Source: Parcubacteria group bacterium Gr01-1014_31
GTDB taxonomy: Bacteria; Patescibacteriota; Patescibacteriia; Buchananbacterales; GWA2-38-13
Assembly: GCA_007376135.1 (NCBI GenBank)
Contig: VMFR01000006.1
Span: 3,273-67,272, forward strand
Length of the DNA: 64,000 nucleotides
Direction of reading: 5' to 3'
A program made the position numbers and the translations under genes. Of this stretch, positions 10,213-53,909 are shown one piece after another; positions within the stretch are counted from its first letter, which is position 1, and each line of letters starts with the position of its first letter. The notes beneath the pieces were generated by a model. The model was not told the DNA's origin, did no database searches, and saw nothing but the letters and a program-made list of their open reading frames with translations.

Positions 10213-10224
10213 AGCCCAATGAAG

Positions 10225-11608: not shown

Positions 11609-11785
11609 TTTCTTTCTGATTATTCTTGGTGGTGGTAATACGGATTCAAAGCGTAAAACGCAAAGCGAAAAACAACAACATAAAAATGCAAAAATATCTT
11701 TTTCCCTTCAAGGTCAGGATGCTTGAACCCAACATAACACAGTTGTTTTGCATTTTCCGTTTTGCGGTTTGCGCTGCTCGGCCCA

Positions 11786-12682: not shown

Positions 12683-12845
12683 AGAGCAAAAGGTTACCTG
12701 TCCGTCTCGGACCGATGGATATAAAATACCATACCCGGTAGTACAACGATAGATATAGTAATTTCACGAACCACGCTCATGCTGGTCATTGCTCGGCAGG
12801 TGCACGATGCTGTGGGCATCTGTTGTCCTACCGGGCATACTCTCG

Positions 12846-13730
12846 CTACCGTTGCAGCCGTCCCGGACCCCGGGGGTCGAACCCGCCCTGGACTTCCACC
12901 CCGTCGGAATAACCGTCGCTGTCCGTATCAACTTTTTTAGGGTCGGTCCGATACACGCGCAACTCATCGTAGTCGGATAACCCATCGCTGTCGCTGTCGG
13001 CTGCTTTCGGGTCCGTCCGGTAGGAAGCCTGCTCGGCGTAGTCGGACAAACCGTCACCGTCGGTATCAACGGGCAGGCTCGCGAGGCAACGCTGGGCGGC
13101 TGCCGCGTCGGCGATCTTCCGACAGGCCTGGTAATCAACCTTGGTGGTGGCCTGAACCGTCCAGTACCGCTCCAGGCACCGCGTACGTACGGCCACCTCG
13201 TACTGGTCGCAGTACGAGGGGTCATCCACGCGGTTGTTGATGAGCACCTGCTGCTCGCAGAACACTCGGTCCTCGTCGGTCGGCGCCGATGCACAAGCGG
13301 AAAAATCGCTCCCCCAAGAAAGCACGGCGCTCCGACACCGTTGCTTCCCCTCATCGGTACTGATACTCCCGCAGGGTGCTTCGTCAATGCCGGTCGTCGC
13401 ATACCACTCATAGCAGTTATCGCGGTCTTCCGCATTATCCACTGCCGCACACGCTGCGGGGTCGTTGGCTTTATGCGCCTTACCGCTCTGCACCGTGTTC
13501 CACACGTAGTACCCCACTTTTTGACATTCGGGAACCTTGTCCTTCGCCGCGATGTCGTCGCATCGCGCAACCTCTTCAGCGGTTGGCCCGGGACCGGTCG
13601 CCGCAGGCGATGCGGTCGCCCGAGGACCGGACGATGGCGTTACATTTCGCCCGCGCAGATACCACCATGCCCCGGCGACAACCGCGAAAACCAGCAGCAG
13701 GATGATGGCGAGATTACGAATAGCGCGCAT
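12846..13730 (-). CDS. secreted Cys-rich protein with C-terminal TSP3-like repeats
   Basis: Signal-anchor, a Cys-rich domain of about 170 aa, then DTDGDGLSDYAE / DSDSDGLSDYDE / DTDSDGYSDGVEVQGGFDPRG. The start is 6 nt after the stop of the giant ORF. Confidence 0.5.
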   Translation of the reverse strand: MRAIRNLAIILLLVFAVVAGAWWYLRGRNVTPSSGPRATASPAATGPGPTAEEVARCDDIAAKDKVPECQKVGYYVWNTVQSGKAHKANDPAACAAVDNAEDRDNCYEWYATTGIDEAPCGSISTDEGKQRCRSAVLSWGSDFSACASAPTDEDRVFCEQQVLINNRVDDPSYCDQYEVAVRTRCLERYWTVQATTKVDYQACRKIADAAAAQRCLASLPVDTDGDGLSDYAEQASYRTDPKAADSDSDGLSDYDELRVYRTDPKKVDTDSDGYSDGVEVQGGFDPRGPGRLQR

Positions 13731-13736
13731 AGCGGT

Positions 13737-16700
13737 CTACTGGCAAATGTAACGATCCACGCCGTTCACCCGCTCCAGGCAGGTAATGCGTAAATTGGTG
13801 ATCTCCGACGCATTGCCGTCACGGTCCGAGCGCGTCACGATCTTGAACTTCAGGTAACGGCCCACCAGCTCGCCGGGCGCCGGGAACTGGTTGGAGGTAA
13901 TCAGCGGGCTTTCCCCGATGCGGGCATTGAAATTATCGCGGTCGCGGGTCGTGTTGCGTTCGTCCACCGGTATCCACATATCGGAATCCACAGGCGGGAA
14001 CCCATTCACATCGTCGGATGTGTAGACGTAGATATTGATGTAGCTGCCGCCGCGCTCCACTTTGTCGTAGAGGATCTTGCCCCAGCGGCGGCTCCAGCTG
14101 GTCACGGTGGTGTCAAAGGCGGAAAGCGCATCTGCGTCGCCCGGCGGGAAGGCGACAGCATTCTCGCGCAGCACCAAGGTACGGTTCAGTCCCAGGAAGT
14201 CACTATACATGTAAGGAGCGCCACCGCCGGGATTTCGATTGCTTAAGGGGAAGCACTGGGTCGGCACTCCCAGAGGATTGGCACCGCAGGTCGGCGTGCT
14301 GGGAGGAACGATACGGCACGCGCTGCCGCCGCTTTCCGAGATGGCCCAGATGCAACCCATACTGTCGCCGGACGCTCCATATGCGGCGCGATTACCCGCC
14401 GGCAACGGATGATCCTTAACCAGCACGCCGTCAGTGGTGAGTTCTCGTACATGGGGGCCGCCCGGCTGGGCGAGAAGCATGTTGCCCTTTGTGGTGATAC
14501 CGACGCCGCGAGTGGCACCGTTGCTGAACCGGTCATACGACAGATCGGCATTCACTCGATCGACGCCGCCGCCGCCATCAAAACTGCCTACCCAGGCGCG
14601 TCCGTCCAGATCCACGGCGATACCATATATCCCCCCTCGAGGTACCAAGTTGCAGCTAATATCGGTACCGCACACTAAACCGGCTCTGCCGGCATTGCCT
14701 GGATCCAGTAGCCCGCCGATCTTGCGGATGACATTCTGCGAACGGCCGGAAATCCATATATTGTCCTGCTGGTCCACTGCCAGCCCGTAGGTCCACAGTC
14801 TGCCTTCGGTTGACCGCTCCGGCGTACACTCGTCATTCGAATTGTCGAGCCGGAACAACCGCCCGGGGTCATCAAATTCACCAACCCAGGCGAACCCCTC
14901 GCTGTCGATGGCAACACCCTTCCCATTGGCGCCATTGCCCTTCACGCCCTTGCATATCTTCACTACGCCCAATCCTTCGTCGAGCATGGTGACTTTTTCC
15001 GTACCGCGATCAACGATCCAGGCTTGACCAGCCTCGACGTTCACCGCCGTGCGCGACGGATTACCGATCTCGGACCCACAGTCACGGGCGGTACCCGCCG
15101 GGCAGGTGGTGTTACACCCATCACCGACCGTGGTATTTCCGTCAAAACACGGGAAACCTTCTCCTTCATAGACGTTCGTTGTCGCCGGGTTGTCAGGAAT
15201 AGTCTTATTCGTATTTGCAGTTGCAGTCACCGTCACGCAGCCTGCCGGCCCGCAGAGCTGAGTATCGCCGGCGGAATTCATGCGCGGAAAATCCAGTACA
15301 CAGTAAGCCTTTTCGCACTGCCCACTCCCATCACTGCAGGTATCACCTACGGACATGAAATCCGCATTGCAGTTCCCACCGCCATCATTGCAGCGGTAGA
15401 CATTACCGCCGCTGTCACAGATGCGATATTCGTGCACGACCGTTCCAATGGGGTACACATCGGCGGTCCCAGGCTTCATAACCCCATCGACAGCCACCAT
15501 TTGTGTGATGCGATTAGCGCCGCTCTGCGCCGCCCAGAGGTACGGCGTATGGACGATGGTCGGCGGCACGGTCAGCACGTCCACCTTGATGGGCATGCAG
15601 GTGCGCAACGTCTCGATCTGACAACGCAAGTTGTTGCAGGACGCGCAGAAGTTGTCCACCATGTACAGGGTCAAGCTCTCGGAAACCGGCCCAAGGCACT
15701 GGTTACGGATGGCCGAAACTCGCGCGGAAATGATGGCATCCGTCAGGATCTCCGACCGGAACTCAAGCTCATCCAGCCAGACCTGCGAGGTGTGCAGCCC
15801 CAGCACCCACAGCCACCAGCTGATATCCAGGTTGGGCGGCGGGGATACGGAACCGGCGGGTAACGAGATGTTGCGCGGCAAGCCGTCCAGGAACAGGCGG
15901 ATATTGTCGAAGGTGAAGGTGCCGCCGCCGGCATCGGTCGCCCGCCAGGTCACCGCGACATGGTGCCAGGTGTTGGGTTGCCACGCGGTCCCCAGTTCGA
16001 TGACCGCGCCGGAAATATCAGCCAGAGTCAGCTCGTCCACCCGGTCCTTGACGTTCACCCACATCGTCACCGAACGGTCCCCCGGTCCATAGACATTATT
16101 CGCTCCTGCCGGCATATCGTAGACCAAGGCGTCCCCGGGGTTGAACACCAGCGACGAGCCGAGCTTCACGGGGTTGCCGGCCGCATCCTGACTGCCGTCC
16201 GTCAACCCGTCGGCAAGACTGGAAACGGTCGCGCCCGCCATCGGACGGACGACGCTGCCGTCGCCACGCCGCGCGTCCAACGCCCCCGGCAGCACGCCGT
16301 CGAAGTGCGCAAGGAACAGGTCGGAAGCGACCCGCTGCAAGGGGTAGATCTGCCGGTAGGTCGCGCTGGAGCCGGTCGTGTACGGCTTGTCGCAGTTGGA
16401 GCCGACGTTGAAATTGTTGCTGTCACACTCCTCACACGTCTGCACGCCGCGCACCGGGTCGAAACACTGGTTGACGATGTCCTCGGTGTCGAACCCCAGG
16501 GTGATGCTGGAACGGCCATCGCCGATCCGCGTCAAACAAGTGTGTGAGCCGCCGGGGAACGGGTTGGGGCAGTCCCGCGGACCCAATGCCGCATCCGGCC
16601 TGGCCTCGGTGCAGGGGCCGGCGTCGCATGTACCCGCATACATCGCGGTCCACCCCGAAGCAAAGATCGGCGAACGTCCGGAGGCGGCCGTGAATCGGAT

Positions 16701-19700
16701 CTCCACCGCATCCAGGTTGTTGCCGTCCGTCGCCGCAGCGGGGTTCCGCCAGGCGACGCTGGTAAAGTAGCCGCCATCGGGATTTAACGTCCCGTCCATG
16801 TTGCTCCAGTAAAAATCGTAGCATTCGCCAGAGCTCGTCCAAGCGTCGCACCGGGCCTGCGCGGCGGCATCCCCGCCGATCGCCAGTTGTCCATCGGCCT
16901 CGCTGACTTGCTGGATGAGCCGAGCATCCGTTGCCGGGAACGTGAACACGGTCGCGTTGGTATCCGCCGAGGTGATCTCATATACTGTGACACTCGCCAC
17001 GTCGGCCAAGCTCGCCAGCGGAGCCGCCTGACGGACGTTTTCCACCTCGCGGTTGCCGCAGGCCTGCGCGTCGCAGTCGTCCGCGATGCCGTCCACATCC
17101 GCGTCGCGCGCGAACGACCGCCACGATACTTCATCGTGCGAGAGGGTCCGGGCGTAGCCTTCTTCGCGGAAAACGCGGTAGTTGGGTGACGGCAGTTCCG
17201 CAATGGTCCGGCCCGGGTACAGGCGTGCGTTCACGTCGTGGCCGGGCTGACGCTTCAACTGCTCCCAGTTGTAACAGGCGTCGCCGTCGGCATCGAGGTC
17301 ACAAGCGTCGCCGCCGCAGAACTGGCAGCTGCCGCCCAGCCGGAATCCAAGCGAATCGTTGCAGCTCGCCACGTCGGAGCTGACCGACACGTACGGCTGC
17401 AGGGTGTCAAAACGGCAAGCATTGGCGTCCTGGTCGTAGTCGGCCTGGTCCGGGTTGTAGGTCGCCGGGCAGTTGTCCGACTTGAAGAAGGAGCCGGGGC
17501 AGCTGGAAACGTTGAACCCGGCGTCGCCGAACCGGTCGTTGTCGCGGTCGGTGCAGCGGTCACAGAGGTCACCGACGTTGTCCTCGTCGTAGTCGGGCTG
17601 CATGCAGACCCCGACCCCGCCGCCGACGGTTGCCCCCGGGACCGCGCCTACCCCGGGCACCGCGCCAGTGAAGACCGGCCGCTCCCGGAACCACAGCTGG
17701 CCATAGTTGGCGGCATTGAGCAGCGGGAATCCCGTACCGGCGTTGATACTCGTGAAATCGTTGAACGTTCCGCTACCGGCCCCACCCCCCGCGCCGCCGT
17801 CATACCAGTTGCCCAGACCCTGCGGACCGGGGTTAAGCACGTCGCCCTGGCTCATCATCGCGACCACCGAAATTTCCGCTTCGTCGCCCTCGGCGGTCGG
17901 GTCCGACAGGTCGTTGCCGATGCCGGGAACGTCCGCCTTCTTGACGCAGTAGTCCCCAGCACGTTCGCTGTCCCGCGGTCCCAACACGATGCCGCGCACC
18001 GGGTCCACCATCTCGTTGATGGTCACGGTGAAACGCCGGGCGCCGCCGGCCGCGGTTCCGGTCGCCTCGCGGTCGCAGACCACCAGATCCTGCAGGTAGC
18101 CGTGGAGCGCCGGGTCGGGTGACCCCTCCAATTGGACGGTTGCCGTGATGGGACCAACGCCGGGGTCGTAGGTGAACAGCAGCCGCGCATCATCAGCTCC
18201 GGTATTGGCTGCCATTCCGAACTCCGCCGTCGTCGCTCCCGTGACCCGCGCGTAATCGTTGAAATTCCAGACGCCGCAGCCGGGAGCCGGCCAGCAGCCA
18301 GCCGACAACGGCGGAATTTCGTACCGCCGATTCGTACTCGACTCGCCGACCGTCAACAGGCCACCGGTCACCGAAAACTCGCGGTCTAGTGCATTCAAGG
18401 CCGCCTCGCTCTCCGGCGTCCCGTTGTCAATCGCCCACCCGATGATAGTAACTCCTGCACTACTAAACGTGATACTGCCACGCACGAACGCGGAGTTAGT
18501 GGAGTCCGGCAGGTCGTGCCAATTGCGCAGGAGGATGGAGTGAACGTTATTGCGGGTGCTTGCCGCAATCGTCGCGCCGGTCTGGGAATCGCGGTACAAC
18601 AACGGCAGCGCCACACCATCGCTATCGCTGCGGAACCGCTCCACGATGGCGATGAAGTCACCGCTGGCGGAGGTATCCGTGGACGCCTTCAGGGTCGGCC
18701 GATTGCCACATTGGAATGGGCTGGGTACCAGCGACCCGCCACCGCGACTACCGGACTTCACCGCCGCCTCCGGGTCATACTGCGGGCAGTAGGCAGCCTT
18801 CCAGAGCGACAGGTCGGCAAACGTCTTTAAGCCATCGGCAACGCCATTACGCCAGACCGCGTAAATCTCCTGCCCGGCGGCGCCGGGGGTATATGCGCCG
18901 GCCACCGGGAAGCTGTAGGCGTCCGGATGGATGGTCACCATAACGTCGGCGACCGGGATGGTATCAAACGCGCGCGCCTTGTAGTCGTCGGTGCCACCGC
19001 GCCCAGCGTTATGCGGAGCCCCGTCGAACCACCACGTCGCATCCATTCCTTCGTCAGGCGCGGCCGGATTGGGGTCATGGTTGTACCGTGCCGTCCAGCG
19101 TTTCGCATCGCTGTCGTCCATCCGCGCCACCATAGTCCAGCCACCGCCGTCGGTGGTCATATCGCAGTACACCTGCTCGACGCCCGTGCCGTCGCGGTTG
19201 ACGTCGATCTGGTACCAATTGTTGCCATCCGGTGCGACCCCGTCGGACGACGCGCCCGCCCGCAGGATCTCCAGGCAGGAAGCAAAGAACGGCTGCGAAC
19301 CGGCGAGGCCGAAGTCTAACACAAGTTTGGTCGTGCCGTTGCCCAGCGCGGTCGTTATGCTGTTGGGGCTGCCCAGCGCCGCTTCGGCATTCGGCGTGCT
19401 GCCGGCCTCAACCACCGGCGCGCCGGAAATGCGCTGGGCGTAAACCACCGCATTGGTCACCAGATCCAACCGCACGGCGTCCACGTTATGGCCGGGGCCG
19501 GTTGCAGCCGGGTCGCGGTAGGCGTCGATCGCCAGGAACAGCCCGGCCGGGTCGTCTGTGCCCGCGGCATTGCTCCAGTACAGGTCGTAGCACTCCCCTT
19601 CGCTGGTCCACAGGTCGCAGTCCTGCGCGGGGTTGCCGTTCACCCCGAGGCCGGTCGCGGCGGCCTGTTCGCTGGGGATGTCCGTCGTCAGCTCGGCACC

Positions 19701-22700
19701 GCCGATACCAGTATCGAACGCGTAGGATTTGATCTCGCCGGAACGCTCGAACAGGGTCAGCGCCTTGACGTTGCCGCGCGGCGGATTGACGCAGTCAGCA
19801 GAACTGTTGCAGATGGCGCCATGGAAACGGCCGCCCACGCAGCGGGTGGGGTTGTTCAGCACGCGGCAATTGTCCATCGGCCGGTACGTTTCCTGGCCCG
19901 GGTCCCACCCCAACGGCGGCCACCCGGGGCGCTGGCAACTTTCGCCTTCATTATCCCGGCGGAATCCGACCGTGAAATCATCCACGTTCAGCGAGGCGTT
20001 GTTGCCGAAGATGACCGGGCTGGTGATGGCATTCTCCAAGGCCAGTTCAAAAGCGATGGGGTCGTTGGCCAACGAACGGTTAATCTCAAAGTTTGATCGA
20101 AGCGAATACCACCCATCACCTAGGTCCTGCACCCAAACAGGCTCCCGCAGCGGCAGCCGGAACCCGAGGCCATCGCCAAGGACCGGCCCGTCGGGCGGGT
20201 CTTGGCAACTGACCCGGTACTCCAGCCCGTGCAATGGGGCCTTGACCTGGAAGCGGGTGCAGGCGCGGATGGGACGGAATCGGAGGCGGCCCACCATCTG
20301 CGGGTCGGACGGCCTGACCCTTGCCTGCATGACGTACTTGACCGGATAATCCGGCGAGGTCTGCAGGAACTGCGGATTGCGCGCGCTGCGCAGCGCCAGG
20401 TACTGCCCGGGCGCGAGATTCTGGATAAGGATCTCGGCGCTGTGCACGCCGCGGTAGGCGCGGGCGTGGTTGTTGCTGGGGTGAAAATCGCTCAACCGCC
20501 GGTAGTCGGTCGCCTGCCGCAGGTGGGCGTCCGCGCCGGCGCTGGCGAACATCTGCCAGCCGTTCAGCCCGTCTTCAAAGCTGGAATTCCCGACGAGCTG
20601 GTCGGTGAGCTGGTCGTTGTCCGAGTCGATGCAGGAATCGCAGCGGTACCCGGTGCCGTCATTATCATAGTCCTCCTGGCCGGGGTTGAACCCCTGGCTC
20701 AACTGCGCGCCGGTGAGCTGGCAGTTGTCGCGTCGACAGGATTCCGCCGGTAACCCCGACCCCCAGCCGTCGCTGTCGGGGTCGGTGCACAGGTCGCACG
20801 CGTCGCCCCACTCGCGTCCGTTGGGCCACACCTGGCCGGCATGCACGTCCGGCGACTGCTGCTGGCAGAGCTCGGCCCGCACAACGCCGGCGCTGTCAAA
20901 ACACGTGTTAGGTGCGATGGTGCAATCGCGTCCGGCCTCACCCGGGCGTGCCGTGGCGATAACTCCGCCACCGATATCGACTTGCGCCACACAGTACCGT
21001 CGCTGCTGTGCGGCCGGCACTGCGAGCGCGCCATCGCTGTTCGTTTGCGACGGGTTGTAGACGGTCGGGCAGTTGTCCACCGCGTCGCATTGGCCGTCGC
21101 GATCCAGGTCCTGCGCGCAGTTGGTGTCGCAGGCGTCGCCGGTGTTGTCGCTGTCCGCATCGCGCTGATCGGGATTGGGCACGTCCGGGCAGTTGTCGGG
21201 GCGGTAGCCGTACTGCGGGTTATCCAGCCCGTTCTCGCACACCCCGTCGTGGTCCAGGTCGTTCTCCCCGGAATTCGGGCACGGGTCGCAGACATCGCCA
21301 AAGCCATCCACGGTGGACCAGATCTCAAGCTCGGAAAGCCGGTCGGTCGGGGGCGAGACATTGGGAATATCCGTGCCCGTCGTACGGTAGAGACGGACGT
21401 ACTGCGCGTACTGCTCGGGGAAATTATACATGACGCCCGGCGGGTCGCAGATCGGGTCGTTGGGCGGGTTGGTCGATGTCGGGCAGTTCACCCCGCGATG
21501 GTCCGTGAAGTTGCTGATCCGCTCCTGAACGCCGATGAAACGGCCGGCCACCGTGCCGGGCCAGTTGTTCTCGGTCGCGACCACCGTGAACTGGCCGGCG
21601 CTAAAGAAGGGGTCATTGCTCACCTGGACCTCAAAGCGCTGGAAGAAGGTGGTCGGCGTCCCGGGATTCGGGAACACCCGCACTTGGTTGAACCGCATCG
21701 CCCGCCCCAGGTTGATGCCAATGTATGCGTTCTGGGTATGCCCCGCCTGGTTCACGTTGGCCGGCGCCCAATAGGAGACATTGTCAAAGAAGTGGCCGGA
21801 ATTGACGTTATCCGAGGTAAACGAGAAGAACGGGCTGGAGATCGGTTCCTTGCCGCGCGCAATGTTGGTCGGGTTGATGTCCGAATCCATCTGCCAGCAG
21901 GTCCCGGCATTGCCGCACTCGCGATTGGTGCCCGACGGGCAAAGCGTGCCGTCCGGCTGCGCGCCGCCGAGACACTGGTACGGATTCGCATTATTGGGGC
22001 AATTATCCTGGTCATCGCGCACGCCGTCGCGGTCCGCGTCGCCTTCGCCCAGCGCCAGGAAATTGAAGCAGGCGTCGCCCATGCCCGAGACGCTTTCCGA
22101 ACCTTCACGCCAGCCGCCGCGCTCCTTGGGGAATTCCAGCCGCGTGTAGAGCCGGTACCCCTGCCCATTGCGCGTGCGGTCCACGCTGTAGCCGTAGACG
22201 TACGCCCGCAGCGGGCAGCCGAACCGCAGCCCCTGCTCATCCCAGCAGGTTTTGCTGTCGTATGGCGGAATGCAGCCGACAAACTGGTTGATGGGGTCGG
22301 TCGGGGGCACGCCGCCCAATTGCTGCGCGAACGTCTGCCCCCACGACGGCCAGACCGAGAAACTGTGGCCCGGCACGTAGGTGCCGCCCGTGAACTCGCG
22401 CCGCACCGCGTCCCACAGCGGGAAACCGCCGCGCTTCCGGGCCGATGCGCGCAGCGCCAATTGCAGGTCCTGGAGCTGACCGAACCGGATGGCGTCGCGG
22501 CGGATCTTGGACTGCGGATTCAGACAGGAATTATCCGCCTGACCCGGGCAATCCAGGTCATTAGCGCAAGCGACGTTGCTGCAGACGCCAGCCGTGCCGC
22601 AGGAATCCCCGACGCCCGGCTGGATGCACACACCGGCAGTGCCGGCGTCGCCATCGCCGTCACAGGGATTGCCGGCAGCGGCACAGCCGGCAAACACGTC

Positions 22701-25700: not shown

Positions 25701-28700
25701 TGCGCCGACAAACGGCGTCCATTGAGCGACCGCGGTCACCGTCAACTGCCGGTTATTCGCGCCGGCAGCCCCCGGAGCGCCGGCAATCGCCGGGTCGCTG
25801 GTGATCTGCCGCCACTCCCACCGGTAATTGACCGTGGGTATCAACTGCGCCCGCTGCGCCGGGTCAATATCCATCCAGAAGGTGCCGGTACGGGTGACTG
25901 CCGCATCGCTGAAGCTCATCCAAATCCCGCAACCCAGAACGACCGTCCCCGCGCTGTCCATCCGCGCCGCGGGCAAAAAGCCGCCGGGCAAAGACACGCG
26001 GGTGGCGGCCGCGCAGTCGTTGGCCGAGTTGGCGGAGATGGCGTAGTTCACGCCATCGGTGCTCGCTGGACAGATGAAGACGTTCGCGCTGCACCCCAAC
26101 ACTCCCCCAAGGGTTGGGGTTCCCACCCCAGCGCCGATACGCGTGACCGCCCCACCCACCACCGTTGCGGAACGCAACGGTCCCACAAGCGACGCATTGT
26201 AAACCTGCGAGTCGCTGGGCCGGACCTGGGCGAACGCCGGGTCCACTTCCACGTCGGTCGCGCGGCACACCTGCGTGCCAGTCCGGAACGTCCACCTGCA
26301 CTCGCCGGGTCGGCAGACCAACGGCCGCGGCGTGGCGCTCGTATCAAAGATAGCTGCGGCATTCGTTTCAAGATCAACTTCGTAGGTCGCGTTCTGCGCC
26401 CAGCGCGACCCGTTCGGCGTAATAGTTACCGCGTTCCCATTGACGAGGATTTGGGTCGCCGGTGTCGTGATGCCGTACGCCCCGCCGTTCTCCGCAAGCC
26501 GAACCTGTGCCCGCACGGTTGCGATATCCGGCGGAGCGCTGAAATGAACTACAATGGCTTCGTTCAAACACGCCTCGGTTGACCCTTCCGGCTGTTTGGA
26601 GGTGATGCGGAAAGGCCCGCCCGCGCCGCCCGTACCATCCGTCGGCACGATGAACGTGCCGCGGCCGACCACCGTGCCGTCGGCAGCCGTAATATTCGCA
26701 GTCCCGACCCCAATAGCTTCTACCAACTGGTGTGGGCTGGTGATAGTGCTCGCCGTCCCCGTCAGCAAACAGCTGTTGGTACACCCGTCGGTGTTATCGC
26801 CGCCGTATTCGCCGGTATCGCACTCTTCCCCGGATTCAATGTTGCGATTACCACAGACCGAGATGGGCGCCGCTTGCGCGTTGCCGGCAATGCCGGTGGT
26901 TGTACAATTTGTGGCACAATTCCCCACCGCCGCGCCCCGCGGCCGCCGGTTGTTGGCAAAATCGCTAGACGCACAGGACCCATACCAGATGGGCGCCATG
27001 CCTGCACCCGCCCCGCACACCTCACAGGCCTCGCCTGGCCCAACGATTCCGTCGCCGCAGACCGAACGGCCAAATCGCGGTCCTTCCAGTTGGCAATTAA
27101 CGCCGCAACCGTCGCCGGACAGCAGGTTGCCATCATCACATTGCTCCTCGCCGTTCTCGGGGATACCATCACCGTCATTTTCCACGATGCCATTACCACA
27201 CGCCCACGAAGCTACGCTCCCCGGTCGCACGGTATTGCCGGTATCGGTATCGGGGTTAATCTGGCAGGACGCGTCGCAGTTGTCGGTCGCAACGTCCGGC
27301 CCGTTGTCGCATTCCTCCCCCGTTTCCATCACCGCGTTGCCGCAGCCGTTCGTGCCGCCTGCCGGCCCAAGGATTGCCGCAACACCTGCGGCGGACGACG
27401 CCCATAGCCAATCAATGCTGAACGGGTCCAGACGCTGGCCGAGCGGGTCGCAGGCATCCGGGGTCTTTCTGGGGATGGCCGTGTACGGCACCCGCTGGGG
27501 TGGATACGCCGTCACGGTCGGCGGCGACACATCCACCTTGCTCACCGCGCAGAGCGAAAAATTCTCCTGCACCTTGAACACCCAGGAGTAAGAATCCAGG
27601 GTGCCGTTGTTATCAGCGTCAAAATTCAGTTTGCCCAGGCCCTTGCCCTCGGTGCTGGCAAGCCCCGTATCCGCGCCTGCTGCGTCGGTATCCGAATCCA
27701 ACACCACGCGGTAATACACGCCGGGGATGAGACGGCCGCCATTGTGGGCGTTGACGGGGCTGAATGTGGCAATCGTGCCGCCGCCGGACACCGTCACGCC
27801 CGTCAGACTCACTAAATTATCCGGATTCGGCACACAGATATAATCAAGCCCGCAAACGTACAGCCGCGTGTGATTAGTGTTGGAAAGCCGGTTGGCGTCC
27901 GCAGCATCATTTTCCATCGGCAGGGAGAACTCCACGCCTAGTTGCGCATTGGGACACGCCGACTGACAGTCCGGCCATTTGCGCAGCACCACCGGGGTAG
28001 CCAGGTCAACGGAAATTCTACATATACCGACTTCTGTCGTCTGCGCAGGAATGGTCACGGAAACATTCGTGCCTGAAGTTTGGCCTTGGGCAGTCGCCGT
28101 CTCGCGCTCGGTGGTGCTGCCGCCGATACTGACGCGCGCGGCGTCGGCGGTTGCCCATAACCACGTTGATGTTCGCAAATCCAATAACATGCAGGCGTTC
28201 TCGCTCGACCATGCCTCACCGGTCAAGGGCTGCGTATCGCCGCGACTGTAAAGAGCCGCCTGTTCCGGACTGCAGCCGACGCACCCAACCTGACCGGGAG
28301 CGATGTTGTTACGAGTCCGGAATACCCAGACGAAATTGCCCGTGCTCGGGTCGGTATTGGCCAACTGCTCCCCGCTGGGCGACCTGATATCCTTAGTCAA
28401 CGTAACCCGATACCAATGATCTTCCTGGAGCGGCTGTCCTGGGGCAAATGGCGTGAGTGTCACATTGATCCGATGAGCGCGAACACCATGGTAGACCCAC
28501 TCCACCAACGGTGTAACGGCGCTGGCATGATTGGTGGTGGCATCACAAGTTGCTGGATCGAAAGTTGCCCCGGTACCACAAAGTTCGACTTTGACGGTTG
28601 ACAAGGTCACCGTCGAGGGATCGAGCAAGCGATCGATACTGGCCGAGATCAGCGCATTGACCGGGACCTCGCTGCCCGGCGGCGGCGTCGGGCTGGAGTA

Positions 28701-31700
28701 GCCGCCCACAGAGCAATCCAGCGTCCGGGTACATTGCTGGATCACCCGCGGGCCGACCTTACCGGTAATGAAATGCCACCGATAGGAGCTTTGCATGGTC
28801 ACGCCGCCGCAGGAACCGGCGGGCGCGCACGACCCACTGTACGGTCCCACCGCGCAGCATTCTTGCCCACCCGTGCAGGCTTCCTGGCCGCGGCAGTCGC
28901 CGACCGAAAACAGCAGCGGGTTGCTATTCACAGGACCCGGATTTTGCACCCGCACGTCGCCGGTCACCGCGCCACCAGGGACGGTTGCCGTTAATTGATC
29001 GGCGTTGCTGGGATCACCCGATAATGAAACCGATGAAGGCGGCGCGATTACCGTTCCTGCTGATGCAGTGAATACCACTTGAGAGTCCGCAGGTGGATTT
29101 TTTACGAACCGCTCGCCGTAAATCGTAATGCGCGCCGTGCCCGCCGGCCCGTTGTCCGGCTGCAGTTTGCAAATCCCAGGGCCCGCAGTGCCGCCGACCG
29201 TCAGGTCGTCAAGAGCCGGACCGTTGGTGTCGGCGCTCGTATCGCGCAAACCCGCATCGGTCACCACTTCAATGGGGCCGGTGACCGCGCCGGTCGGCAC
29301 CTTCACCAGGATTCTGCTGTCGCTCCAGATGTCCGAGCCGCACTGCGATGGGAAGGTGAAATTACCGTTCCGCTTGGCTGCCTCCGTACACCCGGCATCA
29401 CCGCAGAATTTTACCGTCCCGCTCCCCTGCCGCCCGCCAAAGTTGGCGCCGATGATGGTGAGGTAGTCTTCGATTGCCGCATTGTGCGGAGCAGCATTCG
29501 GCCCGCTGAATTCCAAAATAACAGGGTGGTCGGCGCCGGGCTGCACACGAAAACCAAGATTGTTGCTGGGCTGCGAGCCGTCCACTTCCAGCCACACCCG
29601 CACAAGGCCTGGCACCAAGCTCGGCACCACGCCACTGTTGACTTCGGTATTGTTCCAGACCGACGGTACGCCGAACGCTGCCAAGTGGCCGCCAAACAGG
29701 ATGCGGTCATTGGTTGCATCGGCGTCCGTGCGCAGTAGCCGGATACCGTGAATATGCACGGGGTCCTTGAATTCGCCGGACGTCGGGTCAAGCCGACAGA
29801 TGCCGGGCAAGACCGCAGCTGGGTTTACATCAAAATCCGGGATGGCACGCTCGGTGCTCCGCGGCGCGTTGTTTGTAATATCCTGCTGGCCGTCGCCGGT
29901 GGTGACGCGAATCGGACCGTCCACCGCTCCGGCCGGCACCACTACAATGATCTCCGTATCCGTCCACGTGTTACCACAGGCCGCATTCACCGAGCCGGCA
30001 AGCCCTGCCACCACCCATCCGCCGCCATTTGAAAATTCAACCACGCTGCTGCCTGCAACGTAGGCGCCAAAATTGCGGCCGATGATGGTTACGAGGTTGC
30101 CAACCGCGCCGAACGGCTGGTCATCGTTGTACTGGTCGCCGTCGGGGTCCACGGGCGTGCCGTCGTTGTCCGTCTGCACGTCGTTGGCCGGGCTGACATA
30201 GTCAATGAACGGCGGTTCCACACACAGACAGCTGGTCGTGCTGCAACCGAATGCACACACGCTGTCGTTGGGTTGACACGCGGGTGTCGCAGTGTCGATG
30301 TCGCACGCTACGCCGGAACACGCGCCGCACTCTGATCCGCCGCAGTCCACCCCAAGCTCACCGGCAGCGGCATCTTGGACGCCGTTGCAGCAATGCCCTG
30401 GCCGCACCTGGTAGGTGCGCTCGCTGCGCGCCTTGTGGTCGTCAAAATCAAAGGCCTCGGCGCGCACCCGCAGCGATCCGAGCGGATAACCCGTCAAATC
30501 CACCGCGATGTCGGCAGTACCCGCGGCCTCGCTGCCTGCGGGCGTATCGTAGTCCGGCCAAACGATGGCGGGGTTGGTCAGGTTATCGAACGCGACCAGG
30601 TCCACGCCGGAATCGGGGTCGGAATAACTGGCGCGCAAATGCTGGCCCACATCGGCGCAAATGTTACCGGGCAGCAGGTTCACTGATGGGGCCTGGAGGT
30701 CAACGATATCGTTGGTCTTAAAGAACCAGACGCACTGGGAGCGGCAGAAACCGCCCGTACCGCAAGCAGCGCCCAGCGCCCCGCAAACTCCTGCCGGGTC
30801 GCTGCAAAATACCGCCGGGTCGCAGCTCACTGCCTGCCCGCCACACTGCAGCGGCGGCTGCACCGTCACCTTGTATTTCCGGTCGGACCGGAAACACTTC
30901 GCGCCGGTACCGGGACAAAAGGAATCGTCGAGCGGCTTGAACTCAGCACGACGGCCATTCGTAGTGATGGTTCCCGGCACCGAATTACCCCCGCAGGTTC
31001 CCAAACACTCGCCGGACAAACAAGCGAAGTCTGACAGGCAGACATCGCCATTACTGCCGGTAGCACCCGGTTCCTCCAGTTGCACCAAAAAATTCGTCTG
31101 CAGGTCTGCGCCCTGCACCGGGCCTTGGTTAAAATTCACCCGCACCACCGAGTTTTTCACGCGGTTATCACGGTCGGGGCTGACTGTATTAATACGGCAC
31201 GCAAGCGTGGTTCCACCTGGCCCCGGACCCGGTCCTGGCCCCGGACCACCGCCGCCGGCAACCGGCCCCGTCGCGGAGACCAGCGAACGGATGACGAAAC
31301 TGACAATGGCAAACGCGCCAAAAATGAGGAACAGCCCGATGACGGCTTCCACCAGGATACGTTTGGCTCGGTCCACCTTCTGCGGGTCGCCAGCTGCCGT
31401 CATCCACAACCACCCGGCGTAGATGATGATGAGTACGGCCACGACTCCCAGGAACCCGAACAGGACCTGGATGATGCGCATGATGGTCACGCGCAAATCC
31501 TGCGTACCCCACCCCACGATTGTCCCGAATCCCAGCCCTTCGTTCACCGACGCACCCAGCTGCGCGAAAGCGGGAGCGGCGACGGCAAGTCCGCCCGCCA
31601 GCGTCAGGGCGGCAGCCAGGGTCAGGTATTTTGTGGAACGGGATGGCTTCAGATATCGCGGTATCAAGTATGAAGTATCAGGTATCAAGGAAACCGTGTC

Positions 31701-31706
31701 GGCCAA
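13737..31706 (-). CDS. giant (5,989 aa) multi-domain surface protein with an N-terminal two-TM pilin-like module of the type IV secretion (VirB2/TrbC) type
   Basis: Uninterrupted 17,970-nt ORF. The N-terminus has a signal peptide followed by IMRIIQVLFGFLGVVAVLIIIYAGWLWMTAAGDPQKVDRAKRILVEAVIGLFLIFGAFAIVSFVI. This matches the conserved T4SS-pilin pattern (...LLGFLGVI..LIIYAGFLWMTAGGN...AKK.L...IIGL.I...AY.I). Recognisable passenger domains follow. These are Myxococcus-type Cys-rich repeats (CGNG..E.GEECDDGN...GDGC), IPT/TIG (LVTIIGRNFG, YLTIIGANFGG), two LamG/ConA-like domains, and an F5/8 type C discoidin-like domain. There is a fibrinogen-C-like domain (YCDMTTDGGGWTMVAR), at least four TSP3 repeats (DNCPxxxNPxQxDxD) and a C-terminal NHL-like beta-propeller. 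Start-codon assignment is uncertain (see findings). Confidence 0.85.
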   Translation of the reverse strand: MADTVSLIPDTSYLIPRYLKPSRSTKYLTLAAALTLAGGLAVAAPAFAQLGASVNEGLGFGTIVGWGTQDLRVTIMRIIQVLFGFLGVVAVLIIIYAGWLWMTAAGDPQKVDRAKRILVEAVIGLFLIFGAFAIVSFVIRSLVSATGPVAGGGGPGPGPGPGPGGTTLACRINTVSPDRDNRVKNSVVRVNFNQGPVQGADLQTNFLVQLEEPGATGSNGDVCLSDFACLSGECLGTCGGNSVPGTITTNGRRAEFKPLDDSFCPGTGAKCFRSDRKYKVTVQPPLQCGGQAVSCDPAVFCSDPAGVCGALGAACGTGGFCRSQCVWFFKTNDIVDLQAPSVNLLPGNICADVGQHLRASYSDPDSGVDLVAFDNLTNPAIVWPDYDTPAGSEAAGTADIAVDLTGYPLGSLRVRAEAFDFDDHKARSERTYQVRPGHCCNGVQDAAAGELGVDCGGSECGACSGVACDIDTATPACQPNDSVCAFGCSTTSCLCVEPPFIDYVSPANDVQTDNDGTPVDPDGDQYNDDQPFGAVGNLVTIIGRNFGAYVAGSSVVEFSNGGGWVVAGLAGSVNAACGNTWTDTEIIVVVPAGAVDGPIRVTTGDGQQDITNNAPRSTERAIPDFDVNPAAVLPGICRLDPTSGEFKDPVHIHGIRLLRTDADATNDRILFGGHLAAFGVPSVWNNTEVNSGVVPSLVPGLVRVWLEVDGSQPSNNLGFRVQPGADHPVILEFSGPNAAPHNAAIEDYLTIIGANFGGRQGSGTVKFCGDAGCTEAAKRNGNFTFPSQCGSDIWSDSRILVKVPTGAVTGPIEVVTDAGLRDTSADTNGPALDDLTVGGTAGPGICKLQPDNGPAGTARITIYGERFVKNPPADSQVVFTASAGTVIAPPSSVSLSGDPSNADQLTATVPGGAVTGDVRVQNPGPVNSNPLLFSVGDCRGQEACTGGQECCAVGPYSGSCAPAGSCGGVTMQSSYRWHFITGKVGPRVIQQCTRTLDCSVGGYSSPTPPPGSEVPVNALISASIDRLLDPSTVTLSTVKVELCGTGATFDPATCDATTNHASAVTPLVEWVYHGVRAHRINVTLTPFAPGQPLQEDHWYRVTLTKDIRSPSGEQLANTDPSTGNFVWVFRTRNNIAPGQVGCVGCSPEQAALYSRGDTQPLTGEAWSSENACMLLDLRTSTWLWATADAARVSIGGSTTERETATAQGQTSGTNVSVTIPAQTTEVGICRISVDLATPVVLRKWPDCQSACPNAQLGVEFSLPMENDAADANRLSNTNHTRLYVCGLDYICVPNPDNLVSLTGVTVSGGGTIATFSPVNAHNGGRLIPGVYYRVVLDSDTDAAGADTGLASTEGKGLGKLNFDADNNGTLDSYSWVFKVQENFSLCAVSKVDVSPPTVTAYPPQRVPYTAIPRKTPDACDPLGQRLDPFSIDWLWASSAAGVAAILGPAGGTNGCGNAVMETGEECDNGPDVATDNCDASCQINPDTDTGNTVRPGSVASWACGNGIVENDGDGIPENGEEQCDDGNLLSGDGCGVNCQLEGPRFGRSVCGDGIVGPGEACEVCGAGAGMAPIWYGSCASSDFANNRRPRGAAVGNCATNCTTTGIAGNAQAAPISVCGNRNIESGEECDTGEYGGDNTDGCTNSCLLTGTASTITSPHQLVEAIGVGTANITAADGTVVGRGTFIVPTDGTGGAGGPFRITSKQPEGSTEACLNEAIVVHFSAPPDIATVRAQVRLAENGGAYGITTPATQILVNGNAVTITPNGSRWAQNATYEVDLETNAAAIFDTSATPRPLVCRPGECRWTFRTGTQVCRATDVEVDPAFAQVRPSDSQVYNASLVGPLRSATVVGGAVTRIGAGVGTPTLGGVLGCSANVFICPASTDGVNYAISANSANDCAAATRVSLPGGFLPAARMDSAGTVVLGCGIWMSFSDAAVTRTGTFWMDIDPAQRAQLIPTVNYRWEWRQITSDPAIAGAPGAAGANNRQLTVTAVAQWTPFVGARQADIEAFYPPDGVSGLARFAVGNLCQLPYRSGTRYNIYPLQPGVDTTVIGHFDGVPRLDLGNGRTLEPSTQVGLTYNNGLTDGGTARLGQAVTFDADTDLLEYPAAGLFDPRQGTVSLWLRSRESLATSRTLLATTNDLFNIIFTSVGGFSTVRINYGGIQVAMNGAQFATVGDEWHLVVASWEIQGADVVVGMSLDGQPPVVARGAVAPIVVDGTTRLRVGNDFIMAATDARADIDELELGQGVMDAQEIEARYQAVAAQCISGASLAGAPQVDRCTPTGTADACTDAGVVNCSSPQISVTFDGPMDRESLLRRDGTGFYDNVLLCSDTDYTDGGGCMPDENLIQELAYNPISERLSVVRPTNLPTSDTADLRYHMVLKVGADRIVGVSGLPLNGGIGGDVHWDFSIARGARQCRCDAVRAWLMPKGVYGFQDQFACAGNTCQGDLDLAVTGNQHAYDAECYDRSAGQPAASVTYQWREAYDVNGAVNLSCSVVAGCTTATALDDSTLITTNTFVNGEARVAVVATGSGATQGRAEQLVDITNFVCANPWPDPWVFPWKDTSVFPIGAGATDNKAPYTNFELFYCRDLNRTPSANDDLPPVQAPPTVRASSLPKQFLFPLNYFQETPAVQIIQGTDMQVAGSNNFLTTLMARTGSAGDTQCMMGNTGAVVQLAYALNVPETGHYQVAFEVVNNDPDFEPASAISIAIDHDRDGAVDAPEQARILPSLELSSRQIVTFDLGQARSDVDAGRPLLVAFRYENDDATQNGNETIAVCRIGFGKANIKHDVIGVQVLANPWRVSPGTWYASGICSNASFRCSDNLSVVDCAGRTLGATCADGSGTCSEPEDIASLNGLCFGDADCVTGRCVYNVPNRGKSPQSTLVDGYSAIRDGRTVYVGATNLVTLTAGDNSACDSNGAVCSVGNNGPCAGGVCQAQKLFANIYLMSYNEGAGEQTLSIFDELSRNWKFNTDLVSVGACAAMSCSEAGGNCSALRCSDTGDVFAGCAAAGNPCDGDGDAGTAGVCIQPGVGDSCGTAGVCSNVACANDLDCPGQADNSCLNPQSKIRRDAIRFGQLQDLQLALRASARKRGGFPLWDAVRREFTGGTYVPGHSFSVWPSWGQTFAQQLGGVPPTDPINQFVGCIPPYDSKTCWDEQGLRFGCPLRAYVYGYSVDRTRNGQGYRLYTRLEFPKERGGWREGSESVSGMGDACFNFLALGEGDADRDGVRDDQDNCPNNANPYQCLGGAQPDGTLCPSGTNRECGNAGTCWQMDSDINPTNIARGKEPISSPFFSFTSDNVNSGHFFDNVSYWAPANVNQAGHTQNAYIGINLGRAMRFNQVRVFPNPGTPTTFFQRFEVQVSNDPFFSAGQFTVVATENNWPGTVAGRFIGVQERISNFTDHRGVNCPTSTNPPNDPICDPPGVMYNFPEQYAQYVRLYRTTGTDIPNVSPPTDRLSELEIWSTVDGFGDVCDPCPNSGENDLDHDGVCENGLDNPQYGYRPDNCPDVPNPDQRDADSDNTGDACDTNCAQDLDRDGQCDAVDNCPTVYNPSQTNSDGALAVPAAQQRRYCVAQVDIGGGVIATARPGEAGRDCTIAPNTCFDSAGVVRAELCQQQSPDVHAGQVWPNGREWGDACDLCTDPDSDGWGSGLPAESCRRDNCQLTGAQLSQGFNPGQEDYDNDGTGYRCDSCIDSDNDQLTDQLVGNSSFEDGLNGWQMFASAGADAHLRQATDYRRLSDFHPSNNHARAYRGVHSAEILIQNLAPGQYLALRSARNPQFLQTSPDYPVKYVMQARVRPSDPQMVGRLRFRPIRACTRFQVKAPLHGLEYRVSCQDPPDGPVLGDGLGFRLPLREPVWVQDLGDGWYSLRSNFEINRSLANDPIAFELALENAITSPVIFGNNASLNVDDFTVGFRRDNEGESCQRPGWPPLGWDPGQETYRPMDNCRVLNNPTRCVGGRFHGAICNSSADCVNPPRGNVKALTLFERSGEIKSYAFDTGIGGAELTTDIPSEQAAATGLGVNGNPAQDCDLWTSEGECYDLYWSNAAGTDDPAGLFLAIDAYRDPAATGPGHNVDAVRLDLVTNAVVYAQRISGAPVVEAGSTPNAEAALGSPNSITTALGNGTTKLVLDFGLAGSQPFFASCLEILRAGASSDGVAPDGNNWYQIDVNRDGTGVEQVYCDMTTDGGGWTMVARMDDSDAKRWTARYNHDPNPAAPDEGMDATWWFDGAPHNAGRGGTDDYKARAFDTIPVADVMVTIHPDAYSFPVAGAYTPGAAGQEIYAVWRNGVADGLKTFADLSLWKAAYCPQYDPEAAVKSGSRGGGSLVPSPFQCGNRPTLKASTDTSASGDFIAIVERFRSDSDGVALPLLYRDSQTGATIAASTRNNVHSILLRNWHDLPDSTNSAFVRGSITFSSAGVTIIGWAIDNGTPESEAALNALDREFSVTGGLLTVGESSTNRRYEIPPLSAGCWPAPGCGVWNFNDYARVTGATTAEFGMAANTGADDARLLFTYDPGVGPITATVQLEGSPDPALHGYLQDLVVCDREATGTAAGGARRFTVTINEMVDPVRGIVLGPRDSERAGDYCVKKADVPGIGNDLSDPTAEGDEAEISVVAMMSQGDVLNPGPQGLGNWYDGGAGGGAGSGTFNDFTSINAGTGFPLLNAANYGQLWFRERPVFTGAVPGVGAVPGATVGGGVGVCMQPDYDEDNVGDLCDRCTDRDNDRFGDAGFNVSSCPGSFFKSDNCPATYNPDQADYDQDANACRFDTLQPYVSVSSDVASCNDSLGFRLGGSCQFCGGDACDLDADGDACYNWEQLKRQPGHDVNARLYPGRTIAELPSPNYRVFREEGYARTLSHDEVSWRSFARDADVDGIADDCDAQACGNREVENVRQAAPLASLADVASVTVYEITSADTNATVFTFPATDARLIQQVSEADGQLAIGGDAAAQARCDAWTSSGECYDFYWSNMDGTLNPDGGYFTSVAWRNPAAATDGNNLDAVEIRFTAASGRSPIFASGWTAMYAGTCDAGPCTEARPDAALGPRDCPNPFPGGSHTCLTRIGDGRSSITLGFDTEDIVNQCFDPVRGVQTCEECDSNNFNVGSNCDKPYTTGSSATYRQIYPLQRVASDLFLAHFDGVLPGALDARRGDGSVVRPMAGATVSSLADGLTDGSQDAAGNPVKLGSSLVFNPGDALVYDMPAGANNVYGPGDRSVTMWVNVKDRVDELTLADISGAVIELGTAWQPNTWHHVAVTWRATDAGGGTFTFDNIRLFLDGLPRNISLPAGSVSPPPNLDISWWLWVLGLHTSQVWLDELEFRSEILTDAIISARVSAIRNQCLGPVSESLTLYMVDNFCASCNNLRCQIETLRTCMPIKVDVLTVPPTIVHTPYLWAAQSGANRITQMVAVDGVMKPGTADVYPIGTVVHEYRICDSGGNVYRCNDGGGNCNADFMSVGDTCSDGSGQCEKAYCVLDFPRMNSAGDTQLCGPAGCVTVTATANTNKTIPDNPATTNVYEGEGFPCFDGNTTVGDGCNTTCPAGTARDCGSEIGNPSRTAVNVEAGQAWIVDRGTEKVTMLDEGLGVVKICKGVKGNGANGKGVAIDSEGFAWVGEFDDPGRLFRLDNSNDECTPERSTEGRLWTYGLAVDQQDNIWISGRSQNVIRKIGGLLDPGNAGRAGLVCGTDISCNLVPRGGIYGIAVDLDGRAWVGSFDGGGGVDRVNADLSYDRFSNGATRGVGITTKGNMLLAQPGGPHVRELTTDGVLVKDHPLPAGNRAAYGASGDSMGCIWAISESGGSACRIVPPSTPTCGANPLGVPTQCFPLSNRNPGGGAPYMYSDFLGLNRTLVLRENAVAFPPGDADALSAFDTTVTSWSRRWGKILYDKVERGGSYINIYVYTSDDVNGFPPVDSDMWIPVDERNTTRDRDNFNARIGESPLITSNQFPAPGELVGRYLKFKIVTRSDRDGNASEITNLRITCLERVNGVDRYICQ
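31373..31577. repeat. roughly 200 bp DNA repeat (about 85% identity to 34596-34800) encoding the shared pilin-like module
   Basis: A run such as ...cactcccaggaacccgaacaggacctggatgatgcgcatgatggtcacgcgcaaatcctgcgtacccc... is nearly identical to 34670-34740. Confidence 0.7.
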
Positions 31707-31745
31707 TCCTTAATACTTGATACTCAATACTAAATACTCCACTAA
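31655..31745. promoter_or_regulatory. two inverted arrays of four tandem heptads (NNATACT x4 and GTATCAN x4) spanning the annotated start of the giant ORF
   Basis: Plus 31714-31741 reads TAATACT TGATACT CAATACT AAATACT. Plus 31661-31688 reads GTATCAA GTATGAA GTATCAG GTATCAA. The same NNATACT x4 array recurs at 36519-36546. The region is AT-rich in a 65% GC context. Confidence 0.45.
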
Positions 31746-36546: not shown

Positions 36547-36556
36547 TGGCTTGACT

Positions 36557-36585: not shown

Positions 36586-36608
36586 TTGTTCGTTGACAAC
36601 TGACAAAT

Positions 36609-41846: not shown

Positions 41847-41849
41847 AAG

Positions 41850-53896: not shown

Positions 53897-53909
53897 GTAC
53901 GACATGAAC

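Follow-up and report, generated by a model that had tools for sequence, protein, structure and literature searches.

The 64,000-nucleotide stretch analysed here (the window; contig VMFR01000006.1 of assembly GCA_007376135.1, Parcubacteria group bacterium Gr01-1014_31) carries on its minus strand a gene for a protein of 5,989 residues, hereafter the giant, in which a pilin module of the type IV secretion system (T4SS) is linked via a Gly/Pro stretch to a passenger of ~5,850 aa with domains typical of adhesins and lectins. This pilin-giant architecture is real, conserved and abundant in the ABY1 lineage of the Patescibacteria. The giant is probably a Sec-exported adhesin, anchored at the cell surface by its pilin hairpin, in an ultra-small, probably episymbiotic ABY1 Patescibacterium from groundwater.

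The Giant Open Reading Frame

The open reading frame (ORF) runs through 5,989 codons without interruption, at exactly the position originally predicted, and encodes a protein with a predicted mass of ~631 kDa and 216 cysteines, deposited in GenBank as TSC75791.1 (“Uncharacterized protein G01um101431_1118”, Parcubacteria group bacterium Gr01-1014_31). The source genome is assigned to the GTDB class ABY1, with 1,336,367 bp, 1,210 coding sequences and the entry “Presence of VirB4: Yes” (Table S1, PMC12102498). The giant gene makes up 1.3% of these 1.34 Mb.

13737..31706, minus strand: complete giant ORF, with uniform third-codon-position GC (GC3) and the collinear homologues P0075, P0061 and P0056

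Such a gene might be suspected to be an artefact, whether through chimeric assembly, as a string of fused genes or as a pseudogene in decay, given that the source genome is metagenome-assembled and that the ORF is of extreme length, stop codons being rarer at high GC (~62% in the window). However, the coding signal is uniform across the ORF, since GC3 lies between 0.69 and 0.83 from end to end. Furthermore, a 76.6-kb contig at NCBI and a 72.3-kb contig at ENA carry the 100%-identical upstream neighbour, each with an adjacent gene call of 5,989 aa, and the orthologue in another metagenome-assembled genome (GCA_030648715.1, locus L004) aligns collinearly over 3,190 residues with 81% identity and no stops. 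Full-length homologues match the giant at both ends, and the synteny is kept. An artefact of this kind, which the original prediction had named among the outcomes that would undo its claim, is thereby effectively refuted and retains next to no probability.

The N-Terminal Pilin Module

The N-terminus of the giant, the head, consists of the following elements:

31563..31667, minus strand: predicted Sec signal peptide (aa 14-48, from the TTG at 31667), with basic n-region, hydrophobic core and A-F-A↓Q-L
31269..31562, minus strand: mature VirB2-like pilin module (aa 49-146), with helix 1, the basic loop GDPQKVDRAKR and helix 2
31209..31268, minus strand: Gly/Pro-rich linker GPVAGGGGPGPGPGPGPGG, beginning at the end point of stand-alone pilins

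As judged from its sequence, this N-terminus is a genuine member of the T4SS_pilin family of Patescibacteria and Gram-positive bacteria. The pilin motif, the signal peptide and the hairpin of two transmembrane (TM) helices on which the earlier proposal was built are all present, and the suggested hidden Markov model (HMM) search bears the proposal out, with PF18895 (T4SS_pilin) of Pfam scoring 40.6 bits on the isolated N-terminus at residues 71-138 (gathering threshold 26.6) and 36.1 bits within a 2,000-aa piece of the giant. PF04956 (TrbC/VirB2), at 23.6 bits under a gathering threshold of 27.9, does not include the head, and NF045849, which covers the Mbov_0395 pilin-like conjugal transfer proteins of integrative and conjugative elements in Mollicutes, reaches 35 bits under its NCBIfam cut-off of 40, so that the head is a relative and not a member of that family. 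The whole N-terminus is 52-54% identical to 128-aa stand-alone pilins, and the mature core 57-59%. One such stand-alone pilin (P0002, 128 aa) is encoded elsewhere in the same genome, being 59-64% identical to the heads of the giant (59%) and of the adjacent 1,055-aa protein described below.

Across all 5,989 residues, the only hydrophobic segments are the signal peptide (aa 27-48) and the two helices (~aa 71-107 and 114-147); none follows aa 147, such that the giant has a single, N-terminal anchor and no C-terminal one. AlphaFold2 (AF2) agrees, placing a helical hairpin at aa 71-103 and 108-145 with a predicted local distance difference test (pLDDT) score of ~80-86 in the helices. The earlier suggestion to compare this model with VirB2/TrbC pilins thus yielded the hairpin, but no significant fold match to a solved pilin: Foldseek returned nothing at E <= 0.001 (8dfu, the conjugation pilus of A. 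pernix, came 16th with E = 3.2), a hairpin being too simple to discriminate, and a profile of the pilin alignment gave only chance-level matches to PDB sequences, none of them to solved pilins. Membership in the pilin family is therefore a matter of sequence, not of fold.

The signal peptides of the aligned homologues all terminate at AxA↓QL. Stand-alone pilins terminate with ...SLANATS, and at exactly that point the giant runs on into the linker, with the (A/V)TG junction motif kept in 12/12 long fusion proteins examined. This arrangement would also suit a cleavable export and anchor module, in which processing at the ...S-L-x-x-A-T-G junction would release the passenger as a secreted or S-layer-associated protein, in analogy to TrbC, which is trimmed at its C-terminus. 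The conserved junction coincides with the C-terminus of the stand-alone pilins, a flexible Gly/Pro linker directly follows it, and the conserved neighbourhood includes a gene for an S26 signal peptidase. However, the protease site and the processing enzyme are both hypothetical, the S26 gene resembles housekeeping LepB, and the junction is perhaps conserved merely as the end of a membrane helix. We regard such a release of the passenger as improbable.

The Passenger Modules

Module calls were graded by the curated cut-offs of Pfam and NCBIfam, with PDB sequence matches and AF2 models searched by Foldseek as further support. From the N- to the C-terminus the passenger contains:

28902..30104, minus strand: array of IPT/TIG immunoglobulin (Ig)-like domains, ~aa 535-935 (Pfam TIG 43.6-46.3 bits, two stretches)
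26727..27350, minus strand: Myxococcus-type Cys-rich acidic repeats, ~aa 1453-1660 (TIGR02232 39.3 bits, cut-off 20.8; DUF4215 29.2 bits, cut-off 27)
26280..26615, minus strand: Big_5 bacterial Ig-like domain, aa 1698-1809 (Pfam 63.3 bits)
24945..25397, minus strand: LamG/concanavalin-A-like lectin domain, aa 2104-2254 (Laminin_G_3 30-31.5 bits, cut-off 27.6)
21027..22085, minus strand: TSP3 Ca-binding repeats, aa 3208-3244 and 3465-3560 (TSP_3 44.5 bits; COMP/thrombospondin in the PDB, E = 3e-16)
18936..19280, minus strand: fibrinogen-like/intelectin (X-type lectin)-like domain with the motif YCDxxxxGGGW, aa 4143-4257 (NF040941 46.6 bits, cut-off 30)
15687..16415, minus strand: probable second LamG-like domain, weak, ~aa 5098-5340 (Laminin_G_3 18 bits, below cut-off)
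14247..15059, minus strand: NHL-type six-bladed beta-propeller, ~aa 5550-5820 (SBBP 25.2 bits, weak by HMM)
13740..14129, minus strand: conserved C-terminal end domain (RWGKILYD ... NLRITC ... IC), common to full-length homologues

The module list of the original prediction is thus largely right for the TIG domains, the Cys-rich repeats, one LamG domain, the TSP3 repeats and the fibrinogen-like domain, while its discoidin domain and its second LamG domain stay below cut-off. The discoidin-like stretch, at aa 3307-3384 between the TSP3 blocks, is weak (F5_F8_C 21-23 bits, cut-off ~28), and the second LamG-like region cross-matches the LamG region of P0061 and P0075. For the fibrinogen-like domain, PDB sequences of XEEL, FIBCD1 and intelectin-1 match aa 4143-4257 with E = 1.6e-4 to 2e-3, and Pfam Fibrinogen_C reaches its cut-off of 22 only on a 600-residue piece (22.9 bits; 21.0 on a 2,189-residue piece). 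The propeller, weak by HMM, gains from its model: although AF2 gave an overall pLDDT of 52 for the last 649 residues, the propeller core, which alone was used, has a pLDDT of 60-80 and matches Pizza6, TRIM2-NHL, virginiamycin B lyase and PknD in Foldseek with E ~1e-10.

Homologues and the Frequency of Fusion

Queried with the 147-aa head, a word-indexed homologue search returned short pilins only, and the long fusions emerged only by an exhaustive search with the same query, which yielded 30,305 cluster representatives at E <= 1e-3. The top 150 of these comprise 56 proteins of 501-1,500 aa, 29 of 1,501-4,000 aa and 10 of more than 4,000 aa (maximum 6,860). The long proteins among them mostly bear a single N-terminal pilin head, and some of the shorter ones have 2-17 tandem copies. 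The heads of the giants P0075 (5,145 aa), P0061 (5,873 aa) and P0056 (5,280 aa) are followed by passengers collinear with that of the giant in the window up to the C-terminal ...RITC.DSAGR.IC, the alignments spanning 4,500-4,980 residues of the latter; other giants match stretches only within the first ~3,750 residues and differ in their C-terminal halves.

With each GTDB species represented by one genome, a scan gave at least 581 related loci. The 79 best, which come from Buchananbacteria, Uhrbacteria, Magasanikbacteria, Kerfeldbacteria, Falkowbacteria and other Patescibacteria, were classified by the number of residues between the beginning of the pilin match and the stop:

84-108 residues, stand-alone: 33/79 loci
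151-500 residues: 0/79 loci
525-975 residues: 16/79 loci
1,539-3,182 residues: 19/79 loci
running off the available DNA at >= 1,123 residues: 10/79 loci, six of them at >= 3,420
DNA ending after 90 residues, unclassifiable: 1/79 loci

Fusion is a major form of this pilin subfamily and at least as common as the stand-alone form, with 35 complete fusions among the 79 closest loci against 33 stand-alone genes. The expectation that the family normally consists of stand-alone proteins of ~100 aa does not hold for this subfamily, and small size fails to define it, since 10 run-off fusions add to the 35 complete ones. When L004 and a Ca. Buchananbacteria locus (L003) are included, a giant-like homologue is present in at least 30 of 81 loci, in many of them with a gene like that for the 1,055-aa protein directly upstream.

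The lengths of the pilin-fusion genes are strongly multimodal, with classes at ~130 aa, at ~550-1,000 aa, tightly at ~3,000-3,200 aa and at >= 5,000 aa. A further form are poly-pilins (P0021, 1,775 aa; P0018, 427 aa; and others) with 4-17 tandem T4SS_pilin hairpins in one polypeptide, which hints at hairpins packing side by side in the membrane and is hard to square with classical pilus assembly. Many GTDB-representative contigs with typical Patescibacteria pilin loci, L008, L011 and L015 among them, are titled ‘uncultured Gammaproteobacteria bacterium’ (third-party annotation, TPA), and these titles look wrong.

The Partner Gene and Its Neighbourhood

Two genes closely flank the giant gene:

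31742..34909, minus strand: partner gene for the 1,055-aa protein TSC75792.1, with the same pilin head and a Big_5-containing passenger, 35 nt from the giant gene
12846..13730, minus strand: gene for a 294-aa membrane-anchored protein with bacterial TSP3 repeats, starting 6 nt past the stop of the giant

The pilin head of the partner scores 39.3 bits with PF18895. As the 294-aa gene begins only 6 nt downstream of the giant stop, the two are probably co-transcribed. It belongs to a row of three consecutive genes downstream of the giant (10673-13730, minus strand), each for a protein of ~300 aa with one membrane segment, a Pro/Thr-rich spacer and TSP3 repeats. The rest of the window encodes FtsA, FtsZ, YbeY, HisRS, a LepB-type S26 peptidase, Der, Pth, DprA, TopA, S21, YqeY and several secreted proteins.

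The giant is not a one-off, as it had been taken to be, since the gene upstream has the same pilin head and the pair is syntenic elsewhere in ABY1. In Ca. Buchananbacteria GCA_013359225.1 (L003) the order DprA-Pth-Der-LytR-GDPD-S26-HisRS-S21-YqeY leads up to pilin fusions of 958 aa and 5,756 aa in the same neighbourhood, and the shorter contig of L004 keeps the core of S21 and YqeY followed by fusions of 1,039 aa and 5,758 aa. The tandem is kept in L003, L004, L007-L009 and others. The two adjacent pilin cores are 79% identical in the window (31269-31562 vs 34481-34786) and 66% identical in L003 (13000-13305 vs 10115-10420), whereas the orthologous cores of the window genome and L003 are only 51-59% identical. 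At the level of these sequence comparisons this indicates concerted evolution or co-evolution of the two heads. Since the two heads of one genome resemble each other more closely than they resemble their orthologues in the other genome, it is suggested that both take part in one assembly or share a partner, while gene conversion fits equally well.

Start Codons and Heptad-Repeat Palindromes

The giant ORF has three in-frame start candidates ahead of the mature region, TTG at 31706 (annotated), 31688 and 31667, and a further one, a GTG, follows only within the mature region. No ATG is present at or near the 5' end. The ATG that the original prediction placed inside an inverted heptad array is therefore a TTG, and its statement that no alternative ATG, GTG or TTG precedes the mature region falls with the two further TTGs, but the array itself exists and spans all three of them:

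31657..31741, not stranded: inverted heptad-repeat palindrome with 31-nt arms and a 15-nt loop, occupying the 35 nt that separate the upstream gene from the giant gene

The arms read AGTATTT AGTATTG AGTATCA AGTATTA AGGA and TCCTTGA TACCTGA TACTTCA TACTTGA TACC, and the predicted RNA fold has -41.9 kcal/mol (z = -6.4). An Rfam search of 31657-31741 gave no match. An intrinsic terminator is ruled out, as the T-run is not present after the hairpin.

The hairpin is a recurrent intergenic element that resembles an intervening sequence (IVS) and is not specific to the giant gene. Similar palindromes occur elsewhere in the window and in GCA_030648715.1, which argues against a gene-specific regulator. 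Related heptad palindromes lie at 11647-11775 and flank a 23S-rRNA-IVP (PF05635) gene at 41839-42281. The A/T-rich family thus comprises two empty hairpins (31657-31741 and 11647-11775) and two members flanking a PF05635 gene, one in the window (41839-42281) and one in L004 (7296-7745). In L004 an IVP gene sits between 51-nt heptad arms exactly between the two pilin genes, and the window carries an empty hairpin at the position of this cassette. Buchananbacterium GCA_013359225.1 has a plain 26-nt spacer between its two pilin genes, with AAGGGA immediately 5' of the ATG. The palindromes that flank IVP genes resemble an IVS cassette located outside rRNA. The hairpin may affect RNA processing or translation initiation of the giant. 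The TTG at 31667, which would give a signal peptide of 35 aa, is the most plausible start, since in the close relative L004 a GTG start lies 30 residues ahead of the same AFA↓QL site.

Export, Anchoring and the Relation to the T4SS

In the proposed mechanism, Sec would export the giant and signal peptidase would cleave after A-F-A, leaving the mature N-terminus outside the cell. Helix 1 would then span the membrane inward, the basic loop GDPQKVDRAKR would lie in the cytoplasm, and helix 2 would span back out, which is the topology known for VirB2/TraA pilins. With helix 2 returning outward in this way, the Gly/Pro linker and the ~5,850-residue passenger would be threaded to the outside and retained by the pilin hairpin alone. 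TIG and Big_5 domains, Cys-rich repeats and TSP3 repeats would form a long, disulfide-rich and Ca-stabilised stalk, with the LamG, intelectin/fibrinogen-like and possible discoidin domains, and the NHL propeller near the distal end, as ligand- or carbohydrate-binding heads. The lectin-type heads would most plausibly bind glycans on the surface of a host cell or of a substrate, and the giant would act within the conserved tandem with the ~1,000-aa protein that bears the same pilin head.

An extracellular passenger is consistent with the 216 Cys, with TIG, Big_5, LamG, TSP3 and TIGR02232 scores above cut-off, and with the intelectin/FIBCD1-like and NHL propeller matches. The fusion of a pilin head to extracellular modules of the adhesin and lectin type, the core of the original prediction, is supported in this respect, as the predicted topology puts the passenger outside.

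The link of the giant to the T4SS consists in homology and in a VirB4 somewhere in the genome, not in gene neighbourhood. The search for VirB4, VirB6 and VirD4 proposed earlier succeeded for the genome, which is VirB4-positive, and came back empty for the 64-kb window, which has no T4SS gene, VirB4 included. Likewise, no VirB4-like ATPase was found within 10 kb on either side of the 79 closest pilin loci, fused or stand-alone (Walker A pre-filter with Pfam on a subset; not every ORF was scanned by HMM), and a link by neighbourhood is dismissed on these grounds. The Walker A-containing ORFs near the pilin loci that were considered as VirB4 candidates (400-1,400 aa) were Der, FtsK, IF-2, HisRS, SMC-like proteins or pilin fusions.

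In the only tractable species of the Patescibacteria, the T4SS is essential together with its VirB2-like pilins, and the pilins of Ca. Southlakia epibionticum form an essential array. The giant could be a modular conjugative-type pilin, whose head is extracted by the T4SS (VirB4) into a VirB2-like pilus that consists mainly of the 128-aa pilin, with the giant and the 1,055-aa protein as minor or tip subunits displaying adhesins, in parallel to modular type IV pilins. The established membership in PF18895, the stand-alone pilin of the same genome with its 59-64% identity to both heads, the VirB4 of the genome and the co-evolution of the two heads would all fit. As both termini of conjugative pilins face outward in the F and T pilus structures, a C-terminal passenger would be sterically allowed on a sparse or terminal subunit. 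According to reviews, the Patescibacteria T4SS has pilins and no identified adhesin (PMC12102498, PMC12857230). On the other hand, the window has no T4SS gene and no VirB4-like ATPase was found around the 79 loci as described, no pilus has yet been observed for any Patescibacteria T4SS and pilus formation has not been demonstrated for any Patescibacteria pilin (PMC12857230), a passenger of 600 kDa would impede extraction and packing, and classical pilus assembly does not easily accommodate proteins with 4-17 tandem pilins. That the giant is built into a pilus is thus possible and, in our estimation, unlikely. The corresponding idea that the VirB2-like heads of ABY1 serve as an address tag, by which giant modular adhesins reach the inside or the surface of a pilus that a monoderm builds with its T4SS, is equally tentative; if true, the variable C-terminal halves would set host specificity, and the giants would supply the adhesins so far missing from the Patescibacteria T4SS.

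Several points weigh against a surface adhesin anchored by the pilin hairpin as well. A hairpin of two helices offers too little structure for its pilin fold to be confirmed by a fold search, none of the three TTG start candidates has a clear Shine-Dalgarno sequence, and several of the lectin-type assignments lie under or barely at their cut-offs. The term ‘adhesin’ is drawn at the level of the class from the types of domains, and enzymatic or S-layer-like roles may apply too. Furthermore, the co-evolution signal stems from two independent lineages only and could reflect gene conversion between adjacent paralogues.

Comparison With Known Systems

With the VirB2-like pilins of PF18895 the giant shares the signal peptide, two hydrophobic helices, a short basic loop and a score above the cut-off. 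By contrast, it adds ~5,850 residues after helix 2, far from the size of ~100-130 aa of the stand-alone members, and its gene lies in a housekeeping neighbourhood instead of beside VirB4, VirB6 or other T4SS genes. The same topology is predicted for TrbC, VirB2 and TraA of diderms (PF04956), the profile similarity to which is weak over the whole module and below threshold, and the head-to-tail cyclisation of TrbC and VirB2 would be impossible for the giant unless the passenger were removed first.

Modular type IV pilins (PilB and PilC of Streptococcus sanguinis; the minor pilins CofB and TcpB) likewise join a filament-subunit module to an adhesin or lectin module. The giant shares this design principle, but its pilin class is unrelated to theirs and their passengers are tens of times smaller. 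The N-terminus of the giant has no class III signal peptide with the prepilin-peptidase site of type IV pilus pilins (G↓F/M-T-L-x-E) and has a class I AxA site instead.

Giant adhesins, such as the type I secretion system RTX/BAP proteins LapA, SiiE and MpIBP and the Gram-positive Ebh, range from hundreds of kDa to about a megadalton. The giant is of the same size class and also has Ig-like stalks, Ca-binding repeats and terminal ligand-binding domains. However, it is anchored by an N-terminal pilin hairpin and not by LPXTG or a C-terminal TM segment, as its C-terminus, reading ...RITCLERVNGVDRYICQ, has no LPXTG with a hydrophobic segment. Pfam matches over the whole giant include no RTX repeat family. 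The organism is regarded in the literature as monoderm.

The giants of Omnitrophota exceed 30,000 aa and contain many transmembrane segments and SecA-like domains (bioRxiv 10.1101/2023.11.21.568195). Both are very large surface proteins of ultra-small host-dependent bacteria with modules of the dockerin, discoidin or TSP3 type, but only the ABY1 giant has a pilin head.

Published work on the Patescibacteria T4SS treats only small VirB2-like pilins and arrays thereof, with the pilus as speculative (PMC12102498, PMC12857230, PMC10633639), and a survey of 3,035 Patescibacteria genomes detected no adhesins such as PrgB (PMC12102498). According to one preprint, PF18895 is the dominant freshwater-specific domain. 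Pilin-giant fusions were not found described in open-access papers and on bioRxiv, such an absence being no proof. The view that the architecture is undescribed holds for this searchable literature, while the proteins are long-standing entries of public databases, where NCBI names the 958-aa member “TrbC/VirB2 family protein”.

Other Features of the Window

Between YqeY and the 1,055-aa pilin gene lies an ORF for a DUF559 endonuclease-like protein (34916-35341, minus strand; E = 1e-36), which is missing at this position in L003 and L004 and in place of which the ENA record calls a 72-aa ORF on the opposite strand. A protein of 1,063 aa that resembles alpha/beta-hydrolases and lipases and contains a PKD domain is encoded at 36835-40026 on the plus strand; the 5' part of its gene lies in a stretch of low GC (0.50 for 36001-38000 vs ~0.62 in the window), and the gene may have been acquired. 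A cluster for further large secreted proteins (51856-61382, minus strand) comprises a dockerin protein that has a GHL15-like domain, MopE metal-binding repeats, a PPDK_N-like protein of 1,175 aa and a protein with FG-GAP and dockerin domains. The genome invests heavily in surface proteins.

Significance

Much of the diversity of uncultured bacteria belongs to the Patescibacteria, whose cells live attached to those of a host. In the ABY1 lineage, the pilin module often is the N-terminal anchor of very large, conserved and syntenic surface proteins rich in lectin-type domains. Counts of VirB2-like pilins cannot be restricted to small proteins. The giants are candidate host-attachment proteins, which raises the question of whether their pilin head serves as an anchor only or is incorporated into a pilus.

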